Program-made: the position numbers and the translations under genes
Shown: positions 28,168 to 36,282 of the stretch, one piece after another
How positions within the stretch are numbered: position 1 is the stretch's first letter
Layout: every line of letters begins with the position of its first letter
NCBI RefSeq assembly: GCF_058153355.1
Contig: NZ_CM177019.1
Direction: 5' to 3' (one strand)
Length of the DNA: 64,000 bases
Notes under the pieces: generated by a model
Database searches by the model: none
Told to the model about the DNA's origin: nothing
The model's input: the letters and a program-made list of their open reading frames with translations, nothing else

Positions 28168-28181
28168 CAGCCTTCGGGCTG
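28168..28181. repeat. IS4 target-site duplication, left copy
   Basis: CAGCCTTCGGGCTG immediately left of the IS4 left IR; identical copy at 29609-29622. Exact TSD length (12-14 bp) is ambiguous because the target is itself palindromic. Confidence 0.8.
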
Positions 28182-29608
28182 TAATGCCGATCAGTTAAGG
28201 ATCAGTTGACCGATCCAGTGGCTGTGTAAGAATCCGGAAACGCTCACTTGTTTCCGGATTTTTTTATGCACATTGGACAGGCTCTTGATCTGGTATCCCG
28301 TTACGATTCTCTGCGTAACCCACTGACTTCTCTGGGGGATTACCTCGACCCCGAACTCATCTCTCGTTGCCTTGCCGAATCAGGTACTGTAACGCTACGC
28401 AAGCGCCGTCTTCCCCTCGAAATGATGGTCTGGTGTATTGTTGGCATGGCGCTTGAGCGTAAAGAACCTCTTCACCAGATTGTGAATCGCCTGGACATCA
28501 TGCTGCCGGGCAATCGCCCCTTCGTTGCCCCCAGTGCCGTTATTCAGGCCCGCCAGCGCCTGGGAAGTGAGGCTGTCCGCCGCGTGTTCACGAAAACAGC
28601 GCAGCTCTGGCATAACGCCACGCCGCATCCGCACTGGTGCGGCCTGACCCTGCTGGCCATCGATGGTGTGTTCTGGCGCACACCGGATACACCAGAGAAC
28701 GATGCAGCCTTCCCCCGCCAGACACATGCCGGGAACCCGGCGCTCTACCCGCAGGTCAAAATGGTCTGCCAGATGGAACTGACCAGCCATCTGCTGACGG
28801 CTGCAGCCTTCGGCACGATGAAGAACAGCGAAAATGAGCTTGCTGAGCAACTTATAGAACAAACCGGCGATAACACTCTGACGTTAATGGATAAAGGTTA
28901 TTACTCACTGGGACTGTTAAATGCCTGGAGCCTGGCGGGAGAACACCGCCACTGGATGATACCTCTCAGAAAGGGAGCGCAATATGAAGAGATCAGAAAA
29001 CTGGGTAAAGGCGATCATCTGGTGAAGCTGAAAACCAGCCCGCAGGCACGAAAAAAGTGGCCGGGACTGGGAAATGAAGTGACAGCCCGCCTGCTGACCG
29101 TGACGCGCAAAGGAAAAGTCTGCCATCTGCTGACGTCGATGACGGACGCCATGCGCTTCCCCGGAGGAGAAATGGCGGATCTGTACAGTCATCGCTGGGA
29201 AATCGAACTGGGATACAGGGAGATAAAACAGACGATGCAACTGAGCAGGCTGACGCTGAGAAGTAAAAAGCCGGAGCTTGTGGAGCAAGAGCTGTGGGGT
29301 GTCTTACTGGCTTATAATCTGGTGAGATATCAGATGATTAAAATGGCGGAACATCTGAAAGGTTACTGGCCGAATCAACTGAGTTTCTCAGAATCATGCG
29401 GAATGGTGATGAGAATGCTGATGACATTGCAGGGCGCTTCACCGGGACGTATACCGGAGCTGATGCGCGATCTTGCAAGTATGGGACAACTTGTGAAATT
29501 ACCGACAAGAAGGGAAAGGGCCTTCCCGAGAGTGGTAAAGGAGAGGCCCTGGAAATACCCCACAGCCCCGAAAAAGAGCCAGTCAGTTGCTTAACTGACT
29601 GGCATTAC
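28182..29608 (+). mobile_element. IS4 insertion sequence, complete
   Basis: About 1427 bp, bounded by imperfect 18-bp terminal inverted repeats (TAATGCCGATCAGTTAAG at left; reverse complement of the right end is TAATGCCAGTCAGTTAAG) and carrying a single transposase ORF. Confidence 0.9.
28266..29594 (+). CDS. insG: IS4 transposase
   Basis: ORF 28248-29594 trimmed to [16 protein letters not shown]...; 442-aa DDE transposase recognised as IS4 InsG. Confidence 0.9.
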
Positions 29609-29622
29609 AGCCTTCGGGCTGG
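29609..29622. repeat. IS4 target-site duplication, right copy
   Basis: CAGCCTTCGGGCTG immediately right of the IS4 right IR; together with the flanks it reconstitutes an AAAAATGCCAGCC-TTCG-GGCTGGCATTTTT bidirectional terminator hairpin. Confidence 0.8.
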
Positions 29623-29639: not shown

Positions 29640-30545
29640 TTACCAGCGACCGGAAGCACCGCCACCGCCAGAAGAACCGCCACCTCCGCTAAATCCGCCG
29701 CCACTTGAGCCGCCACCGGAAGAGGATGAAGAAGAACCTTTTCTTGAAGCTCTTTCTTTACCGAGCGTCTTGTATTTGGCTCGTAGCTTTTTATTAACGA
29801 TAAGCCAAAAGATAAGCAGCGCTACGATCGCAAAAGGCGTTAACATACCGCAGGCAACGATTAAATTCGTCCATGGTCCTGGCTCGGCAACATAGAGGAA
29901 TACCATCCCGTAAATTGCGGCAGTGAGAGTTATCCAGGGTAGATTCGACGGATCGGTAAAAACAACAAAATATGAAAGCACTGCCAGCAATATAAGTACA
30001 GCAAGCGAAAATGGGATAGGGGGATTGATACTGTAATAATTCCCCCTGCCTTCCGGTAATTCACCATTCATCAGAAGTGCGCCGATATTTTCGCTTGCCA
30101 GTGTTAACCCCCCCATCAGGTCATCACTTTTGAAAGCAGGGATTAATATGTCACGGATAATCTTTGCCGCTTGCAGGTCGGTAACCACCCCTTCCAGCCC
30201 ATAGCCGACTTCTATACGAACAGCATGATCTTCCCAGGCAACCAGAAGTAAAATGCCATCGTTTCGCTGCTTATCTCCCAGTTTCCAGCTATCAAAAACG
30301 CGTGTTGCATATTGTTCAATAGAATCGTCTCCGGTGGATGGCACTATTAATACGGCGACCTGTGCCCGTGTTTTTTGTGTAATATCCTGCAGCTGTTGTG
30401 TCAGTGATTGTTGTTCAGACGTGCTTAAGGTACCAGTAATATCGGTCACCTGTTGGCGCAGCTCCGGCACAGCAATTTGCTGGGCAAGCACAGGAAGGCA
30501 CCATAAAGTGAGTAGAAAAAGGATTATACGCATAACGATCACCAA
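29640..30545 (-). CDS. TPM-domain membrane protein (YgcG-like), paralogue 1
   Basis: 301-aa ORF: signal peptide (MRIILFLLTLWCLPVLAQQ), TPM-type domain (EQYATRVFDSWKLGDK...GILLLVAWEDHAVRIEVGYGLEG), C-terminal TM helices, Gly/Ser-rich tail ending GGGGASGRW. Real start probably the Met at about 30533. Confidence 0.85.
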   Translation of the reverse strand: MVIVMRIILFLLTLWCLPVLAQQIAVPELRQQVTDITGTLSTSEQQSLTQQLQDITQKTRAQVAVLIVPSTGDDSIEQYATRVFDSWKLGDKQRNDGILLLVAWEDHAVRIEVGYGLEGVVTDLQAAKIIRDILIPAFKSDDLMGGLTLASENIGALLMNGELPEGRGNYYSINPPIPFSLAVLILLAVLSYFVVFTDPSNLPWITLTAAIYGMVFLYVAEPGPWTNLIVACGMLTPFAIVALLIFWLIVNKKLRAKYKTLGKERASRKGSSSSSSGGGSSGGGFSGGGGSSGGGGASGRW

Positions 30546-31687
30546 CGGCCGGATGAACTGCCGCCTCCTGAAGAACCGCCGCCACCGCGGAAAGAATTTT
30601 TCGACGAAGAGCGAGAATGAGCATTACGATTCCCCGTTTTCCTGTTGCTTTTATGTCCTGATCCCAGTTTAAGATTGCCAGTAAATTTGGCCACAATGAT
30701 CAGCAGAACGATGCCTGCAATGGTTATTGGGCCGATAAAATGATCAATTAGCCCAATAATTGTTGAGATGAATGCTATATCTTTATTACTGGCGAACACC
30801 AGGCACCATCCCACAACAATTATCAGCAGCACGACAAACAATGAGTTTCGTTCGGATTGAGAAAACTGCTGAGTCGTCTTTTGTTTTTTCACTTTAGCGT
30901 TTTTATTTTGGGGGGCCAGCATCATAGGAAATGCGCGGCATATATTAAAAACTACCGCGAGACGCTGCCAGCAGATTGCTGCGAAAAATAAACTAAAACA
31001 AACGACCGATACCCGCCGAATGATGACATCGTCCTGAAAGGAGAAAAACCAGACCATAGGAGTAATCATCGATATCATCCATATGCCAGGCCCGGGACGG
31101 CTGGTAAATCGCCAGAGGACAACGATGGCAACGATCATCAGTAATGTCCAGGCAAGACATGGCAGCGAGCGTTGCGGATTAGCAAACAGATGATTGGCTA
31201 AAGCATCCAAAGGGCTAAGGTTCGCTTTGATATGGGTAAACTGTGCGATGCTTTCAATTCCCTGCGTTAACCCGGAGAAGAGATTATTTTTTTTGAATTC
31301 CGGTTGCATATGGTAATGAACAATTTGCGCAGCTTGTTCCGGTGGCAGCATCTCTTCCAGTCCATGCCCAATCTTCATTGACGCCAGCCCTTCCGGCCAA
31401 ACGACGAGAATTAAGATACCTTCGCCGTACCGCTTCTCTCCAACAGGTTTCCAGTGATATATCCCGTAGCTTTGCGAGGCTGCAAGTTTAATGTCTTTAC
31501 CCCCAGTGGTCGGCGTTACCAACACGGCCACCTGAAAGTGGTTTTGCTGCTCGAGAGTCTGTAATTGTTGATTTAAAGCAGTTTGTTCTTCTGTCGTTAA
31601 TGTCCCGGTTAAGTCAGTTACTGAAGGCAATTGTTCAGCGAATGCCTGGAAACCACATAGCATCAGAAGTAAGAGAAAAATACGCAT
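30539..31687 (-). CDS. TPM-domain membrane protein, paralogue 2 (extended polytopic membrane insert)
   Basis: 382-aa ORF: signal peptide, TPM-like N-domain (GILILVVWPEGLASMKIGHGLEE), about 4 hydrophobic segments, basic linker, tail GGGGSSGGGSSSGRW; overlaps paralogue 1 by 7 nt. Confidence 0.8.
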   Translation of the reverse strand: MRIFLLLLMLCGFQAFAEQLPSVTDLTGTLTTEEQTALNQQLQTLEQQNHFQVAVLVTPTTGGKDIKLAASQSYGIYHWKPVGEKRYGEGILILVVWPEGLASMKIGHGLEEMLPPEQAAQIVHYHMQPEFKKNNLFSGLTQGIESIAQFTHIKANLSPLDALANHLFANPQRSLPCLAWTLLMIVAIVVLWRFTSRPGPGIWMISMITPMVWFFSFQDDVIIRRVSVVCFSLFFAAICWQRLAVVFNICRAFPMMLAPQNKNAKVKKQKTTQQFSQSERNSLFVVLLIIVVGWCLVFASNKDIAFISTIIGLIDHFIGPITIAGIVLLIIVAKFTGNLKLGSGHKSNRKTGNRNAHSRSSSKNSFRGGGGSSGGGSSSGRW

Positions 31688-31701
31688 TTCAATTCCTTTT
31701 G

Positions 31702-32640
31702 TTACCAGCGCCCGGAGGCGCCACCGCCGCCAGATGAACCGCCGCCGCCGCTGAAATTATCATTGTCAAAAGAGGATGAAGAGGAAGATGACGACGATGA
31801 TGAAGAACGCCTGGAGGCCGAGTTACTTCTTTCGTAATGTGACGGTCGGTTGGCACTGCGCATCGAATCCCGAACCTTTTTGCCGAAGGGGGTAAAAGCG
31901 ATGGCGACAGCCAGGAACGGTGTGGCGAAGCAGAGTAATGTTGCGAGTACTCCCCAGCTTCCGCTGAAACCTGCTATAGGTAAAACAAAGGCCAGTACAA
32001 TAGCTGTGAAGCAAATTAGTCCCAGCGTTTTGACATATCCTCTGGCGGAAATAAAGGTCAGTACTATTGCCCAGACTAACAAAGCCCACCAACCGCTAAA
32101 GGGCAAAGGGTGATCGGTCGGTGTTATCGCTTCTAAATTATTCCCCGTCAGACGATTATCAATATCGCTTATTCCCTTTTGCAAGCCGCCAGCAAGGTCG
32201 CCATTTTTAAATGCCGGAATAATACTGTTGCGAATAATTTTCCCGGACTGCGCATCCGTAATAACGCCTTCCAGTCCGTAACCGATTTCAATACGCACGG
32301 TATGATCCTGCCAGGCGACTAACAGTAGAACGCCATCATCGCGGTCTTTATCACCCGGTTTCCAGCTATCGAATACCCGCGTAGCGTACTGCTCGATGGT
32401 TTCATCGCCCGTTGTTTCAACCACTAACACGACCAGTTGTGCGTGGCTTTTTTGCATCAGCTCTTTAATCTGATTGGTCAACGTATTTACTTCATCGTTC
32501 GTCAATTTGCCGGTTAAGTCATTCACATACCTGGGTGATTCAGGTACTGGAATTTGTATGGCAAACACAGATGAACAAAAGAAAGCCATAAGGAAGATAA
32601 AATTTCGCACAGGACTTCCTCGCTTAATGAGCATTAGCAT
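31702..32640 (-). CDS. TPM-domain membrane protein, paralogue 3
   Basis: 312-aa ORF: signal peptide, TPM domain (EQYATRVFDSWKPGDKDRDDGVLLLVAWQDHTVRIEIGYGLEG), TM helices, poly-Ser tract and tail GGGGSSGGGGASGRW; start overlaps the lemA stop by 17 nt. Confidence 0.85.
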   Translation of the reverse strand: MLMLIKRGSPVRNFIFLMAFFCSSVFAIQIPVPESPRYVNDLTGKLTNDEVNTLTNQIKELMQKSHAQLVVLVVETTGDETIEQYATRVFDSWKPGDKDRDDGVLLLVAWQDHTVRIEIGYGLEGVITDAQSGKIIRNSIIPAFKNGDLAGGLQKGISDIDNRLTGNNLEAITPTDHPLPFSGWWALLVWAIVLTFISARGYVKTLGLICFTAIVLAFVLPIAGFSGSWGVLATLLCFATPFLAVAIAFTPFGKKVRDSMRSANRPSHYERSNSASRRSSSSSSSSSSSSFDNDNFSGGGGSSGGGGASGRW

Positions 32641-33226
32641 TCTGGCTAAAATCTATTGTTGGGGTTTTACTCACAGCGGCGACATCATCCGGCAAATAAT
32701 TTTTCTTCGGTGTGTAATCCATGACTTTTGCGGTTAACACTGCGGGGAATTTGCGGATAGTGACATTATATTGTTCGATGGCTTTAATATATCTTCCTCG
32801 CGCAACGGCAATTCGATTTTCACTTCCTTCGAGCTGTACCATCAAATTTTGATAGAGTTCCTGGGCCTTTAGCTCAGGGTAACGTTCACTAATTATCGTT
32901 AACTGACCGAGAGTGCGAGACACCTGCGCCTGAGCTTGTTGCCAGGTTTGTAATTTTTGTTCATCTCCCGGAGTTTGCTGAAGAGCACTACTGGCGCGAT
33001 TAGCCTGACTACGTGCCAATGTTACGGCTTCCAGTACCTCTTGTTCATGGCTGGAATAACCTTTAATACTGGCGACAAGATTAGGAATAAGATCGGCGCG
33101 ACGTTGATATTGATTTAATACCTCAGACCAGGAAGCGTTAACCTGCTCATCATAGGTTTGAATATCGTTATATCCACAGCCTGATAAATTGAAAATAAAT
33201 ATAATTACGATGAATATTCTGAGCAT
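32624..33226 (-). CDS. LemA-family lipoprotein
   Basis: 200-aa ORF with lipoprotein signal (lipobox LSGC) and LemA-type sequence (RRADLIPNLVASIKGYSSHEQEVLEAVTLARS...); first gene of the four-gene minus-strand cluster. Confidence 0.85.
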   Translation of the reverse strand: MLRIFIVIIFIFNLSGCGYNDIQTYDEQVNASWSEVLNQYQRRADLIPNLVASIKGYSSHEQEVLEAVTLARSQANRASSALQQTPGDEQKLQTWQQAQAQVSRTLGQLTIISERYPELKAQELYQNLMVQLEGSENRIAVARGRYIKAIEQYNVTIRKFPAVLTAKVMDYTPKKNYLPDDVAAVSKTPTIDFSQNANAH

Positions 33227-33398: not shown

Positions 33399-34070
33399 AT
33401 GCAGTACCCGATTAACGAGATGTTCCAGACCCTGCAAGGTGAGGGTTACTTTACCGGCGTCCCCGCCATTTTTATTCGTTTACAGGGATGCCCGGTCGGC
33501 TGTGCCTGGTGCGACACCAAACACACCTGGGAAAAGCTTGAGGATCGGGAAGTCTCCCTTTTCAGCATTCTGGCGAAGACCAAAGAGAGTGATAAGTGGG
33601 GGGCGGCGAGCAGTGAAGATTTGCTGGCTGTCATTGGTCGTCAGGGATACACCGCGCGGCATGTGGTGATTACGGGTGGTGAGCCTTGCATTCATGATTT
33701 GCTGCCACTGACTGACCTGCTCGAAAAGAACGGTTTTAGCTGCCAGATCGAAACCAGCGGTACTCATGAAGTACGCTGCACGCCGAATACCTGGGTTACC
33801 GTATCGCCAAAGCTGAACATGCGCGGCGGCTATGAAGTGTTGTCACAGGCACTGGAGCGAGCCAACGAAATCAAGCATCCAGTGGGACGCGTACGTGATA
33901 TTGAAGCACTGGATGAACTATTGGCGACGCTGACCGATGATAAACCACGAGTCATTGCACTGCAGCCAATTAGCCAAAAGGATGATGCCACACGTTTGTG
34001 CATTGAAACTTGCATTGCGCGTAACTGGCGTTTGTCGATGCAAACACATAAATATTTAAATATTGCCTGA
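33399..34070 (+). CDS. queE: 7-carboxy-7-deazaguanine synthase (radical SAM)
   Basis: 223-aa ORF recognised as QueE/YgcF (CxxxCxxC-type motif GCPVGCAWCDT). Confidence 0.93.
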   Translation: MQYPINEMFQTLQGEGYFTGVPAIFIRLQGCPVGCAWCDTKHTWEKLEDREVSLFSILAKTKESDKWGAASSEDLLAVIGRQGYTARHVVITGGEPCIHDLLPLTDLLEKNGFSCQIETSGTHEVRCTPNTWVTVSPKLNMRGGYEVLSQALERANEIKHPVGRVRDIEALDELLATLTDDKPRVIALQPISQKDDATRLCIETCIARNWRLSMQTHKYLNIA

Positions 34071-34353
34071 CAGGTAATGTGAGTAGAGGTTGTGACGATT
34101 AAGCCTCTACTCTTACATCAATCTGTAAATGCCCCATTTTCTCCTCTCTTTGGTCCGACTCCGCAATTTCGTATATTTTTCAATAGTGTTAATGTTTTGT
34201 CCAAGTAAAAATTACCAGACATTCGGAGGTTTTTAACTAACATTTATAGTGGGTAAATTGGTGGGATACGCTTAACCTTAAAAAATCAATATAAACAATA
34301 GGTTATGATTGGTGTTTGTCTTATCGGATGAACTAATTTAAATGGAGTACTAA

Positions 34354-34617
34354 ATGGCTACTTTAATGGAAAAAGATTCTCTCCTGAATGGCGTAAGTCA
34401 AAATATTGCATTTTTATCAAATGTATCAGAAATGATTTACAAGTCCCAGAATGAAGAATTACAAAAGGAGATATATGAATTGGTGAGTTATAGAGACTAT
34501 TTATATTCAACAGGCCATGAACTCGTTGATTTCAAGGAAGGAGTATTGCGATTTCAGCAAGTTAGAAAAAAATACATGCAGGATCTAAAAGCGCTAGGTT
34601 ATCCCGCAACCAATTGA
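34354..34617 (+). CDS. hypothetical small protein (87 aa) in an AT-rich islet
   Basis: ORF with GGAG Shine-Dalgarno 7 nt upstream; surrounding 34071-34797 is far more AT-rich than the flanks; no family recognised. Confidence 0.45.
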   Translation: MATLMEKDSLLNGVSQNIAFLSNVSEMIYKSQNEELQKEIYELVSYRDYLYSTGHELVDFKEGVLRFQQVRKKYMQDLKALGYPATN

Positions 34618-34797
34618 TAAATATGTCTTTATATTAATTTTAGGATGTGGATAACCTGCTGAAATTTATATTAAAAATGAAATAAAAATATTAAATTCAT
34701 ATCATGCTTGCGTTTTGTTCTCGATAACGCGTAATTTTGTTGAATGCTTTCTCCTGTGAATGCAAAACCAGGCAGTTTCCCGCCCGGCCTTCCTCAC

Positions 34798-36282
34798 TTA
34801 CGCATTCGACCAGCTCTGGATCGAATCTTCATTCCCCAGCTCACCATGCATCACTTCATACGATTTTTTCAGGATCACATCAGTGTGTTTGGTTAGGTCT
34901 TTGAAAATGCCTTTATTCATCGCGTCGTAGCGTTTGGCGTTGCTCTCAACAGGCATAAAGATATCTTTCACGCGAACCATTTTGTCGACAGCCGTTGCGT
35001 AATCCGGGTATAGCCCCAGACCTACCGCCGTATTAATCGCTGCCCCCAGGCTTGCACAACCGTTAATGGCGTTACGTCGTGCCGGAAGGTTGAACACGTC
35101 GGCAAAAATTTGCATAAACAGATCGCTGTTCGAACCGCCGCCAGTAATGATCACATGTTTCGCAAAGTGATTCATTTCATGACACATATTGTCGTAATTG
35201 TTCTTCAGCGTCAGCGTCAGCGCCACGCTTTCCAGTATCGAACGATATATCCATGCGTAATCCATGCTGGAATCAAAGCCGATCATAATCCCGCGTTTGT
35301 ACGGTTCCCACGGATTGGTCAGCCAGTCCAGCACCGTCATCAGACCATTACAGCCAGGCGGCACACAACAAGCTTTTTTGTTGAGCAAATCTTCCGGTGA
35401 AAGATCCTGCGCCCTGGCATCCTGAATTAACGATTCGCCTAGCATGTCGCGCAGCCAACTCACCGTCCACATGCCTTTGCGAATACCGTAACCTTCATAC
35501 AGCAAGGTTTGCGGAATAGAAGACATAATCGGCCAGTACGCTACCGGATCTTTCGGCAGTACTTTGCCGTTCATCATCAACGCGATGTAAGTGCCAAGAG
35601 AAATTACCGCAGTTTCATCATCCAGTAACCCGGCTCCCAGTGCTTCTACCGGTTTATCACTGGTGGTACAAACAACCGGCAGCCCAGCCGGGAAATGTGT
35701 CGCCAGCGCGGCTTGTGGTGTGATATGCCCAAGAACAGTGCCCGGCATTTGCACATCAAAAAGCATCTGTTGGGGAATATTAAACTTCTCCATTACCGCG
35801 GTATCTTCGCTCCATGCCCAGGTCTTATAATCCACCGGCCACTGACCAAAATAGTTGGCGATATTGTCTTTAAACTCGCCGGTTAAACGGTGTGTCAGAT
35901 AACCTGAAAAAGAGGTGACATATGCCACATCAGGATTGGTGTGCTCGTAGGGACGTGTTACGCGTGCATCCTGCCAGCTAATCAACGGCGCAGCTGGCGT
36001 GCCATCGGCTTTCAATAACGCACGGCAGCAACGGATAGATCCCAGACCAATGCCGACAATATCTTCTTTATTCCCGGCAAACTGGCTCATCAAATCGTGA
36101 CCAGCAAAACATAATGATGCCCATAAATCATCGTCAGGATGTTCTGCGGTATCGGCATCTGGAGTGTGCATCGGTTGTAATAAGCCTTTGCCTTCGCAAA
36201 CCACGTTACCTTCCAGATCGTACATCACCACTTTTGTGCTCTGACTTCCGCCATCAATCCCTATGATGTATTTTTTCGACAT
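34798..36282 (-). CDS. ygcE: FGGY-family carbohydrate kinase
   Basis: 494-aa ORF, FGGY kinase N-terminus (IGIDGGSQSTKVVMYD). Confidence 0.88.
   Translation of the reverse strand: MSKKYIIGIDGGSQSTKVVMYDLEGNVVCEGKGLLQPMHTPDADTAEHPDDDLWASLCFAGHDLMSQFAGNKEDIVGIGLGSIRCCRALLKADGTPAAPLISWQDARVTRPYEHTNPDVAYVTSFSGYLTHRLTGEFKDNIANYFGQWPVDYKTWAWSEDTAVMEKFNIPQQMLFDVQMPGTVLGHITPQAALATHFPAGLPVVCTTSDKPVEALGAGLLDDETAVISLGTYIALMMNGKVLPKDPVAYWPIMSSIPQTLLYEGYGIRKGMWTVSWLRDMLGESLIQDARAQDLSPEDLLNKKACCVPPGCNGLMTVLDWLTNPWEPYKRGIMIGFDSSMDYAWIYRSILESVALTLTLKNNYDNMCHEMNHFAKHVIITGGGSNSDLFMQIFADVFNLPARRNAINGCASLGAAINTAVGLGLYPDYATAVDKMVRVKDIFMPVESNAKRYDAMNKGIFKDLTKHTDVILKKSYEVMHGELGNEDSIQSWSNA

Follow-up and report, generated by a model that had tools for sequence, protein, structure and literature searches.

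What keeps the 3' ends of neighbouring genes alike, and what does the peptide that they encode do? An operon of TPM-domain genes in Escherichia coli raises both questions. The stretch analysed here, called the window throughout, is 64,000 nucleotides of contig NZ_CM177019.1 (RefSeq assembly GCF_058153355.1). It contains a four-gene operon on the minus strand (29640–33226), transcribed in the order LemA, TPM paralogue 3, TPM paralogue 2 and TPM paralogue 1. The three TPM proteins have a common layout, in which a signal peptide, a TPM domain, hydrophobic helices, a basic cluster and a low-complexity spacer are followed by a tail ending in SGRW. An earlier, sequence-only reading of this DNA had taken the 3' ends of paralogues 1 and 3 to be nearly identical and had proposed that the tail is a docking or sorting signal and that the repeated DNA could drive gene conversion. 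We find it very probable that the C-terminal motif encoded by the shared DNA is the hallmark of YgcG/BA41-type, LemA-associated membrane TPM proteins, and that it has been under purifying selection in each paralogue. The best explanation as a whole, which we favour with some reserve, is that this hallmark motif is kept independently in each paralogue and acts as a tethered docking peptide.

The positions and reading frames given earlier were correct: the three minus-strand open reading frames (ORFs) end at 29640, 30539 and 31702, each in SGRW followed by a stop codon. The tails of paralogue 1 (29640–29693, minus strand) and paralogue 3 (31702–31755, minus strand) each comprise 17 codons, FSGGGGSSGGGGASGRW, plus the stop codon, and all 17 amino acids are the same in both. 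At the DNA level, the two are identical at 42 of 51 nt over the 17 codons and at 45 of 54 nt (83%) with the stop codon; over 55 nt, the 3' ends show 84% identity. The DNA is thus similar but not nearly identical, and the dotted consensus offered previously masks two further mismatches. All nine differences are synonymous third positions. Outside the tail, paralogues 1 and 3 share only 127 of 273 residues (47%), and the amino acid identity of their tails greatly exceeds both chance and the background level in these genes. The tail of paralogue 2 (30539–30592, minus strand; 17 codons, FRGGGGSSGGGSSSGRW, plus stop) is the more diverged one, as had been noticed, with 39 of 51 nt and 14 of 17 residues in common with either of the others. 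Expressed as a motif, GGGG-x-[SF]-GGGG-A-S-G-x-W is exact in paralogues 1 and 3, while paralogue 2 ends in GGGSSSGRW, with two substitutions.

Synonymous divergence between the tails of paralogues 1 and 3 is near saturation, as in the rest of the gene (proportion of synonymous differences, pS, 0.61; synonymous divergence, dS, ~1.3). Because the identical residues are mostly encoded by GGN codons and the synonymous sites are nearly saturated, the similarity of the tail DNA is no more than the shared protein would give. Recent gene conversion or concerted evolution, with the Gly-codon repeats as recombination substrates, would be the other way to make the tails alike. The tail is the most similar stretch of DNA between the paralogues, internal GGN repeats are present in it (repeat family D2), and slippage-like length variants exist, namely E. 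albertii tails without one 6-aa unit and a probable assembly chimera (locus L116) joined through Gly codons. Against conversion, the differences between paralogues 1 and 3 are all synonymous and leave no excess synonymous identity, and across phyla the motif persists while its third codon positions vary freely. The 54-nt tails were also compared among the window, two E. coli genomes with three TPM genes, E. albertii, a K-12-type ygcG and one further E. coli locus. In this five-genome comparison, tails of the paralogue 1 type differ among themselves by 2–6 nt and those of the paralogue 3 type by 0–8 nt, whereas paralogue 1 and paralogue 3 tails differ from each other by 7–12 nt (9 within the window). 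They therefore group by orthologue and not by genome, and the ten tails of these two types, from five Escherichia genomes, encode the same 17 amino acids while differing by as many as 12 synonymous changes, Arg being encoded by CGC in some and by AGA in others. Since the tails cluster by orthologue and the same residues come from differing codons, we infer that each paralogue has kept its tail independently through purifying selection on the protein rather than through homogenization, which brings the probability of gene conversion close to nil.

In some paralogue 3 orthologues of E. albertii (P0020–P0025), the tail is FSGGGASGRW, shorter by one six-residue unit. This is consistent with slippage between the two blocks of GGN repeats, and it shows that a single-block tail can persist. 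YgcG of K-12 was considered as a recent deletion product between tails and was rejected as such: with 65% identity to paralogue 1 over the N-terminal 188 residues, it is a diverged allele.

Constraint could also act on the nucleic acid, either through Shine–Dalgarno-like GGNGG runs or through translational coupling to the next gene. The genes are tightly spaced, the stop codon of paralogue 2 lying 5 nt before the start codon of paralogue 1 and that of paralogue 3 lying 14 nt before the start codon of paralogue 2, and in other bacteria the third gene of the operon starts at or overlaps the stop codon of the tail. However, the tail is kept in paralogue 1 and in K-12 ygcG, although a terminator, not a gene, comes next, and conservation follows the amino acids, as the two different Arg codons illustrate. 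Among the tails listed from the DNA scan described below, all four bases occur at the third positions of the tail codons, including those of every Gly, Ala and Ser, and this freedom argues that no nucleic-acid-level constraint is at work. We regard a nucleic-acid signal as most improbable.

If selection acts on the protein, the tail should be recognizable in distant relatives. Among close relatives in Escherichia and Klebsiella, [FY]-x-GGGGSSGGGGASGRW is kept behind wholly different spacers. For distant relatives, circularity was avoided by searching with residues 1–260 of paralogue 1, without the tail, against 1.84 billion representative proteins with phmmer. The search gave 143 new representatives at ≤50% identity, of which 106 have W as their last residue and 100 fit [GAS]3-[GD]-x-W; the 37 that do not end in W include 17 short fragments and 6 Gly-rich tails read out of frame. 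With positions anchored at the C-terminus (n=105), W stands at -1, S at -4 in 105 of 105 proteins, A at -5 in 95 and G at -3 in 94. The residue at -10 is S or F in 103, and G occupies each position from -15 to -12 and from -9 to -6 in at least 93. An aromatic residue is found at -17 in 75 of the 105, and S at -16 in 68. The consensus from this tail-blind set is [FWY]-S-GGGG-x-[SF]-GGGG-A-S-G-x-W-COOH, with W, S(-4), A(-5) and both GGGG blocks fixed. Position -2 varies (R 37, S 34, G 15, D 7, K 6, N 4).

These counts refine what the sequence-only reading had seen. A terminal GRW had been called invariant; SGRW does end all three paralogues, and W and S(-4) are fixed in relatives, but R is not. 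A short functional motif had been suspected, and the conserved element is fixed and C-terminal; it is, however, a unit of ~17 residues rather than a few. Lack of the tail outside this strain, or low complexity without a fixed end in homologues, had been named as evidence against a motif, and neither applies. The tail is kept in Escherichia and Klebsiella, in 106 of the 143 distant relatives and in 122 of the 122 tail-pattern matches listed from the scan below, which span more than 12 phyla, and its conservation is position-specific and ends in W. A flexible Gly/Ser linker or filler without a sequence-specific role would explain the composition, and the adjoining spacer is truly variable and predicted to be disordered. 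Yet the last 17 positions are conserved one by one at ≤50% identity while the spacer immediately upstream is free to vary, and the protein always stops right after W, so that filler is a very improbable account of the tail. Conversion between the genes, a mere linker and constraint on the nucleic acid are, in our view, effectively excluded.

A separate regularity concerns positions -11 and -2, each of which precedes an aromatic residue. The two are often occupied by the same residue (D/D, S/S or G/G; loci L003–L122). The counts are not controlled for phylogeny, and the matching could come from common descent instead of coupling.

Is the tail specific to TPM proteins? The pattern GGGG-xx-GGGG-A-S-G-x-W-stop was back-translated and, with no TPM reference, scanned against the DNA of one genome each of 100,044 species. 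At least 120 loci with at least 122 matches were obtained; the counts that follow are among the matches listed. All 122 are in frame and terminate an ORF, and 91 of the 93 complete ORFs encode a TPM domain. Their hosts are Alpha-, Beta-, Gamma- and Deltaproteobacteria, Bacteroidota, Verrucomicrobiota, Lentisphaerae, Ignavibacteria, Chlorobi, Nitrospirota, Nitrospinota, Acidobacteriota, Planctomycetota, Spirochaetota, Cloacimonadota and Gracilibacteria of the candidate phyla radiation, with no match listed from Bacillota or Actinomycetota. A LemA gene lies directly upstream on the same strand at 71 of the 82 loci with enough flank.

The two complete ORFs without a TPM domain do not make convincing non-TPM hosts. 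One (L069) is a frameshifted TPM gene. The other (L116, 519–980, minus strand) is a 153-aa ORF in which a DnaJ J-domain and G/F region are in frame with a TPM tail (...FSGGGGGFGGGGASGKW). It is located downstream of grpE-dnaK and upstream of a TPM-like gene of the third-gene type. The G/F-rich region of DnaJ resembles the tail in its Gly/Phe composition, but the L116 fusion lacks the zinc-finger and C-terminal domains of DnaJ, sits between dnaK and the third operon gene and is the only such case among the 93 full ORFs. It is probably a metagenome assembly chimera formed through Gly-codon repeats, although it may be a real fusion of DnaJ with a TPM tail.

The tail might instead be a generic trait of LemA partners. 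A census that started from LemA, covering 80 loci in viral contigs, argues otherwise: partners that are not TPM proteins (250–270 aa, ending in ...YLENDYLED) have no Gly tail, while TPM partners with transmembrane (TM) segments carry the tail or near variants of it, such as GGGGAGGGW and GGGGSSGDW. Since only TM-bearing TPM partners have it, the tail is tied to the membrane TPM architecture and not to LemA partners in general. In viral contigs L166–L204, many diverged LemA genes are followed by an unrelated gene for a 250–270-aa protein with a C-terminal TM segment. Judged from these loci, the ...YLENDYLED protein appears to be a second, tail-less family of LemA partners; DUF2207 is another partner family.

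Where the tail lies relative to the membrane bears on what it may do. The N-termini of the TPM paralogues read as signal peptides (MRIILFLLTLWCLPVLAQQ, MRIFLLLLMLCGFQAFAEQ and ...FFCSSVFAIQ) and LemA has a lipobox, so the TPM domains and LemA are expected to be periplasmic. Hydrophobic helices then follow, 3 in paralogues 1 and 3 and ~5 in paralogue 2. Many family members have a single unambiguous TM helix and then a basic cluster, and net charge averages ~+2 after the last TM helix and ~-0.4 before the first. Given the periplasmic TPM domain, the single-TM members and the basic cluster after the last TM helix, the tail is predicted to be cytoplasmic, behind an odd number of helices (1, 3 or 5). 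This topology draws on the single-TM members, the charge bias and the helices modelled by AlphaFold2 (AF2); the hydropathy-based TM count merges tight hairpins and is too crude to prove odd parity across the family.

The AF2 model of paralogue 1 (78-sequence alignment; mean predicted local distance difference test score, pLDDT, of 82) contains a confident TPM domain, which Foldseek aligns with BA41 (PDB 5ANP) at a target-normalised TM-score of 0.92 and a root-mean-square deviation of 1.7 Å. Helices follow at residues 175–191, 195–215 and 220–246, and the spacer residues 256–285 have pLDDT <50. Unexpectedly, residues 291–296 (GGASGR) at the very end form a confident β-strand, and the last seven residues (291–297; window 29643–29663) reach a pLDDT of ~93. 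As the only other strands in the model sit in the TPM domain, AF2 apparently adds the tail to the TPM sheet. A search of the PDB with the tail sequence alone gave no match. The resolved chain of 5ANP covers only the 145-residue TPM domain, while the deposited sequence includes the tail.

The predicted arrangement does not fit a sorting signal, the second of the functions proposed for the tail. In LPXTG, PEP-CTERM and GlyGly-CTERM signals, the motif comes first, then a TM helix and finally basic residues at the extreme C-terminus, with cleavage on the outer face. Such signals resemble the tail as short conserved motifs, sometimes Gly-rich, near the C-terminus of envelope proteins. Here, however, the order runs TM helix, basic cluster, spacer, motif and stop, with the motif predicted to face the cytoplasm. 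Since this order is reversed, the tail does not fit a signal of the sortase, exosortase or rhombosortase type, and a sorting signal is unlikely.

Docking, the other proposed function, is plausible. The SSB C-terminal tip and the FtsZ C-terminal peptide each consist of a disordered, variable spacer followed by a short invariant C-terminal tip. The TPM tail has the same hallmarks of a tethered peptide, with a spacer that is variable and below a pLDDT of 50 and an invariant terminal peptide, and like these tips it ends at the extreme C-terminus in an aromatic residue. The likeness is one of architecture only: the TPM tip is almost all Gly, belongs to a membrane protein and would have a partner that is hypothetical so far. 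In the mechanism that we propose, the disordered spacer of variable length would serve as a flexible tether, and the invariant tip, with the free carboxylate of its Trp, would bind a conserved partner on the cytoplasmic side as an extended, β-strand-like peptide. Binding of the tail would thereby link the periplasmic LemA/TPM module to something cytoplasmic. That the motif works as such a tethered docking peptide is a serious possibility that we hold at somewhat below even. The bolder form of this proposal, that the tip is a previously undefined cytoplasmic docking motif that couples the LemA/TPM module to a conserved cytoplasmic partner, possibly a TPM-fold strand acceptor, is more tentative still. 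Such a motif would span many bacterial phyla, mostly of the Gram-negative type.

Several points weigh against tethered docking in the cytoplasm. The topology is predicted from sequence rules and a crude hydropathy count. In the AF2 model, the tail joins the periplasmic TPM sheet of its own protein, an arrangement that the predicted topology does not allow in cis because the membrane would separate the tail from that domain in vivo. When the tail was modelled with a candidate cytoplasmic partner, described in the next paragraph, it stayed undocked. Finally, altered tails occur in some lineages, including FSGGGASGRW in E. albertii, GGGGAGGGW, tails with a trailing D and tails with a terminal F.

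The candidate partner is encoded by a gene that the window lacks. Among the matches listed, the tail gene is directly followed at 61 of 93 loci by a TPM-domain gene with neither tail nor signal peptide, the start of which often overlaps the stop codon of the tail gene (examples are L032 5786–6283 and L021 1103–1606). Its product is either a soluble protein of ~165 aa or one with a TM hairpin inserted in the TPM domain, and both forms end in a conserved NELP-D-x-P motif (NELP-D-x-P-V-V when the next two residues are included). As read from these loci, the canonical system consists of LemA, a membrane TPM protein with the tail and a cytoplasmic TPM-like protein; the E. coli operon has three membrane TPM paralogues instead of the third gene. 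The tail may thus add a β-strand to a TPM-fold sheet, the target in three-gene operons being the cytoplasmic TPM-like protein. Consistent with this, the AF2 model places GGASGR(W) as a confident strand where all other strands belong to the TPM domain, the tail is confined, among the sequences listed, to proteins with a TPM domain of their own, and the tail-less gene is frequently adjacent. We modelled the third-gene protein of L032 fused to the last 45 residues of the tail from its operon (50-row paired alignment). The protein itself reached a pLDDT of ~96 and docked its own C-terminal strand on its own sheet (IVV of NELPDSPIVV), so TPM folds appear able to accept such a strand, but the 45-residue tail remained undocked with pLDDT <50, and the third-gene protein was rejected as the docking site on this evidence. 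Moreover, the tail is unchanged in this E. coli operon and in K-12, which have no third gene, and its sequence variants show no correlation with third-gene presence. If the target were instead the TPM domain of the same protein, the tail would have to reach it through the membrane. We therefore consider strand addition to a TPM sheet unlikely.

Two further roles can be imagined for an exposed tail. The tails might self-associate, as polyglycine-II or as kinked β-structure resembling low-complexity aromatic-rich kinked segments (LARKS), and so cluster TPM proteins, including the three paralogues, in membrane assemblies. The alternation of two GGGG blocks with aromatic residues at -17, -10 and -1, the β propensity that AF2 gives to the tip and the presence of the same tip on three co-expressed paralogues would suit such a role. 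Self-associating low-complexity segments are usually degenerate, however, whereas the A-S-G-x-W positions are fixed here, and we rate self-association as quite unlikely. Alternatively, the tail could be a C-terminal degron or quality-control tag read in the cytoplasm by a membrane or AAA+ protease. The predicted exposed, disordered cytoplasmic C-terminus with a hydrophobic last residue would be compatible with this, and the operons are linked to stress: an sppA mutant of Flavobacterium shows induction of LemA and a TPM gene (PMC13236525), and a σS peak was found by chromatin immunoprecipitation sequencing in the queE/ygcG intergenic region of K-12 (PMC4447067). Strict conservation of 17 residues across phyla with differing protease sets would be unusual for a degron, which makes this a very improbable function. 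The sppA and σS observations point to envelope or stress physiology.

The closest known proteins are those of the YgcG/UPF0603/BA41 group (PF04536; PDB 5ANP), which share with the window paralogues the domain (E-value 1e-39), the architecture, the C-terminal tail and, in most genomes, the LemA neighbour. The PDB sequence of BA41, from Bizionia, ends in ...GGGGFGGGGASGGW, and K-12 YgcG ends in FSGGGGSSGGGGASGRW. The window differs in having three tandem paralogues, where K-12 has one and other bacteria usually one, in the extra TM helices and slightly degenerate tail of paralogue 2, and in the absence of the third gene that is common in canonical operons elsewhere. Psb32 (TLP18.3), a factor in photosystem II repair and assembly, has a comparable extracytoplasmic (lumenal) TPM domain and C-terminal TM anchor, and a cryo-EM study that shows the lumenal topology of this domain matches the periplasmic placement proposed here. 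The paralogues also give a weak NCBIfam match of the Psb32 type and Foldseek matches to 3PVH and 8C7I. Unlike them, Psb32 has no glycine-rich extension and no LemA partner. In a separate observation, Foldseek matched the TPM model to a TPM-fold chain in mycobacterial respiratory CIII2CIV2 supercomplexes (6adq_J, 8ovc_V, 6hwh_O and 8hcr_J). Psb32 and this chain hint at a recurrent use of TPM folds as accessory factors in membrane complexes.

The literature offers little on function. The function of the YgcG family has been called unknown (PMC10091555), no consensus exists on that of TPM domains (10.1101/2024.10.28.620569), and phosphatase or ATPase activity or metal binding has been reported for some TPM family members. 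A search for the motif strings returned no paper, and the literature found on YgcG, BA41 and LemA/DUF2207 gave no function. In the literature searched, the sole mention of the tail is one sentence in the Psb32 preprint, whose authors note a glycine-rich extension in non-photosynthetic bacterial homologues and in a cyanobacterial Psb32-like protein.

Within the window, all three TPM proteins match Pfam PF04536 well above its gathering threshold of 22.1 bits, with bit scores of 132.8, 81.1 and 136.9 for paralogues 1, 2 and 3. Paralogue 1 (29640–30533, minus strand; E-value 8.6e-39) encodes 297 aa from the ATG at 30533 and consists of a signal peptide, the TPM domain, 3 TM helices, the basic cluster NKKLRAKYKTLGKERASRK, a Gly/Ser spacer and the tail. 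Its spacer (29694–29768, minus strand; residues ~256–280, RKGSSSSSSGGGSSGGG) varies in length and sequence among homologues. Paralogue 2 (30539–31687, minus strand; 382 aa; E-value 8.7e-23) has a signal peptide, a diverged TPM domain, ~5 hydrophobic helices, as counted from the sequence, and the variant tail. Paralogue 3 (31702–32640, minus strand; ≤312 aa; E-value 4.8e-40) comprises a signal peptide, a TPM domain, 3 predicted TM helices, a Ser/Asp/Asn-rich spacer and the tail; its spacer (31756–31833, minus strand), poly-Ser followed by FDNDN, has no sequence relation to that of paralogue 1. Because its homologues are 297–300 aa long, its true start is probably a few codons downstream of the start that would give 312 aa. 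The first gene of the operon (32624–33226, minus strand) encodes a LemA family lipoprotein of 200 aa (Pfam PF04011, E-value 2.6e-48) with N-terminus MLRIFIVIIFIFNLSGC and lipobox LSGC, and it lies directly upstream of the TPM genes on the same strand. RefSeq labels the TPM genes 'TPM domain-containing protein' or 'YgcG family protein'. Neither LemA nor any of the three TPM proteins matched a PADLOC model of anti-phage defence (0 families), and the NCBIfam search of the operon proteins returned no informative family. A YxzE-like Pfam match was discarded, as it lies below threshold (21.9 bits against a cut-off of 40) and looks compositional.

The operon is flanked by eno and an IS4 copy on one side and by queE on the other. 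The IS4 copy is complete (1426 bp, 28182–29607; transposase ORF 28248–29594) and lies between eno and paralogue 1, bordered by a 14-bp direct duplication, CAGCCTTCGGGCTG, at 28168–28181 and 29608–29621. The eno and TPM genes converge on a bidirectional terminator whose stem-loop is formed by the duplicated 14 bp, and the insertion therefore doubled the terminator hairpin. In the best-matching E. coli genome (NZ_CM148325), an IS4-like transposase likewise lies under the match. Beyond queE, the queE–ygcE interval (34050–34820) contains an 87-aa ORF (34354–34617) and no direct or inverted repeats; in K-12-type genomes (L001, L002), a CRISPR array occupies this interval.

A comparison of TPM copy number across strains had been suggested with the first description of the cluster. 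Most of the LemA and three-TPM locus is carried by 970 of 5,426 complete E. coli genomes, while K-12-type strains have only ygcG and yqcG in the eno–queE interval. Some E. coli strains have LemA and a truncated TPM gene; paralogue 3 is truncated in strain 148, and strain 8178 has a frameshifted paralogue 2 and a partial paralogue 3. These truncated and frameshifted copies in strains with three TPM genes indicate that the cluster, intact in the window, is decaying in several E. coli lineages.

The genes of this operon are ordinary members of a known family, and the motif at their ends is real and strongly conserved. The DNA repeat in the window is a by-product of constraint on the protein and not a recombination feature. 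LemA/TPM operons are found in a very large share of bacteria, and a 17-residue motif that stays invariant in bacteria as far apart as E. coli, Planctomycetota and candidate phyla provides a concrete handle on the function of the family. If the tip does couple this module to a cytoplasmic partner, the LemA/TPM operon would represent a novel type of device for signalling or assembly between envelope and cytoplasm, and this E. coli lineage would have three copies of it in parallel.

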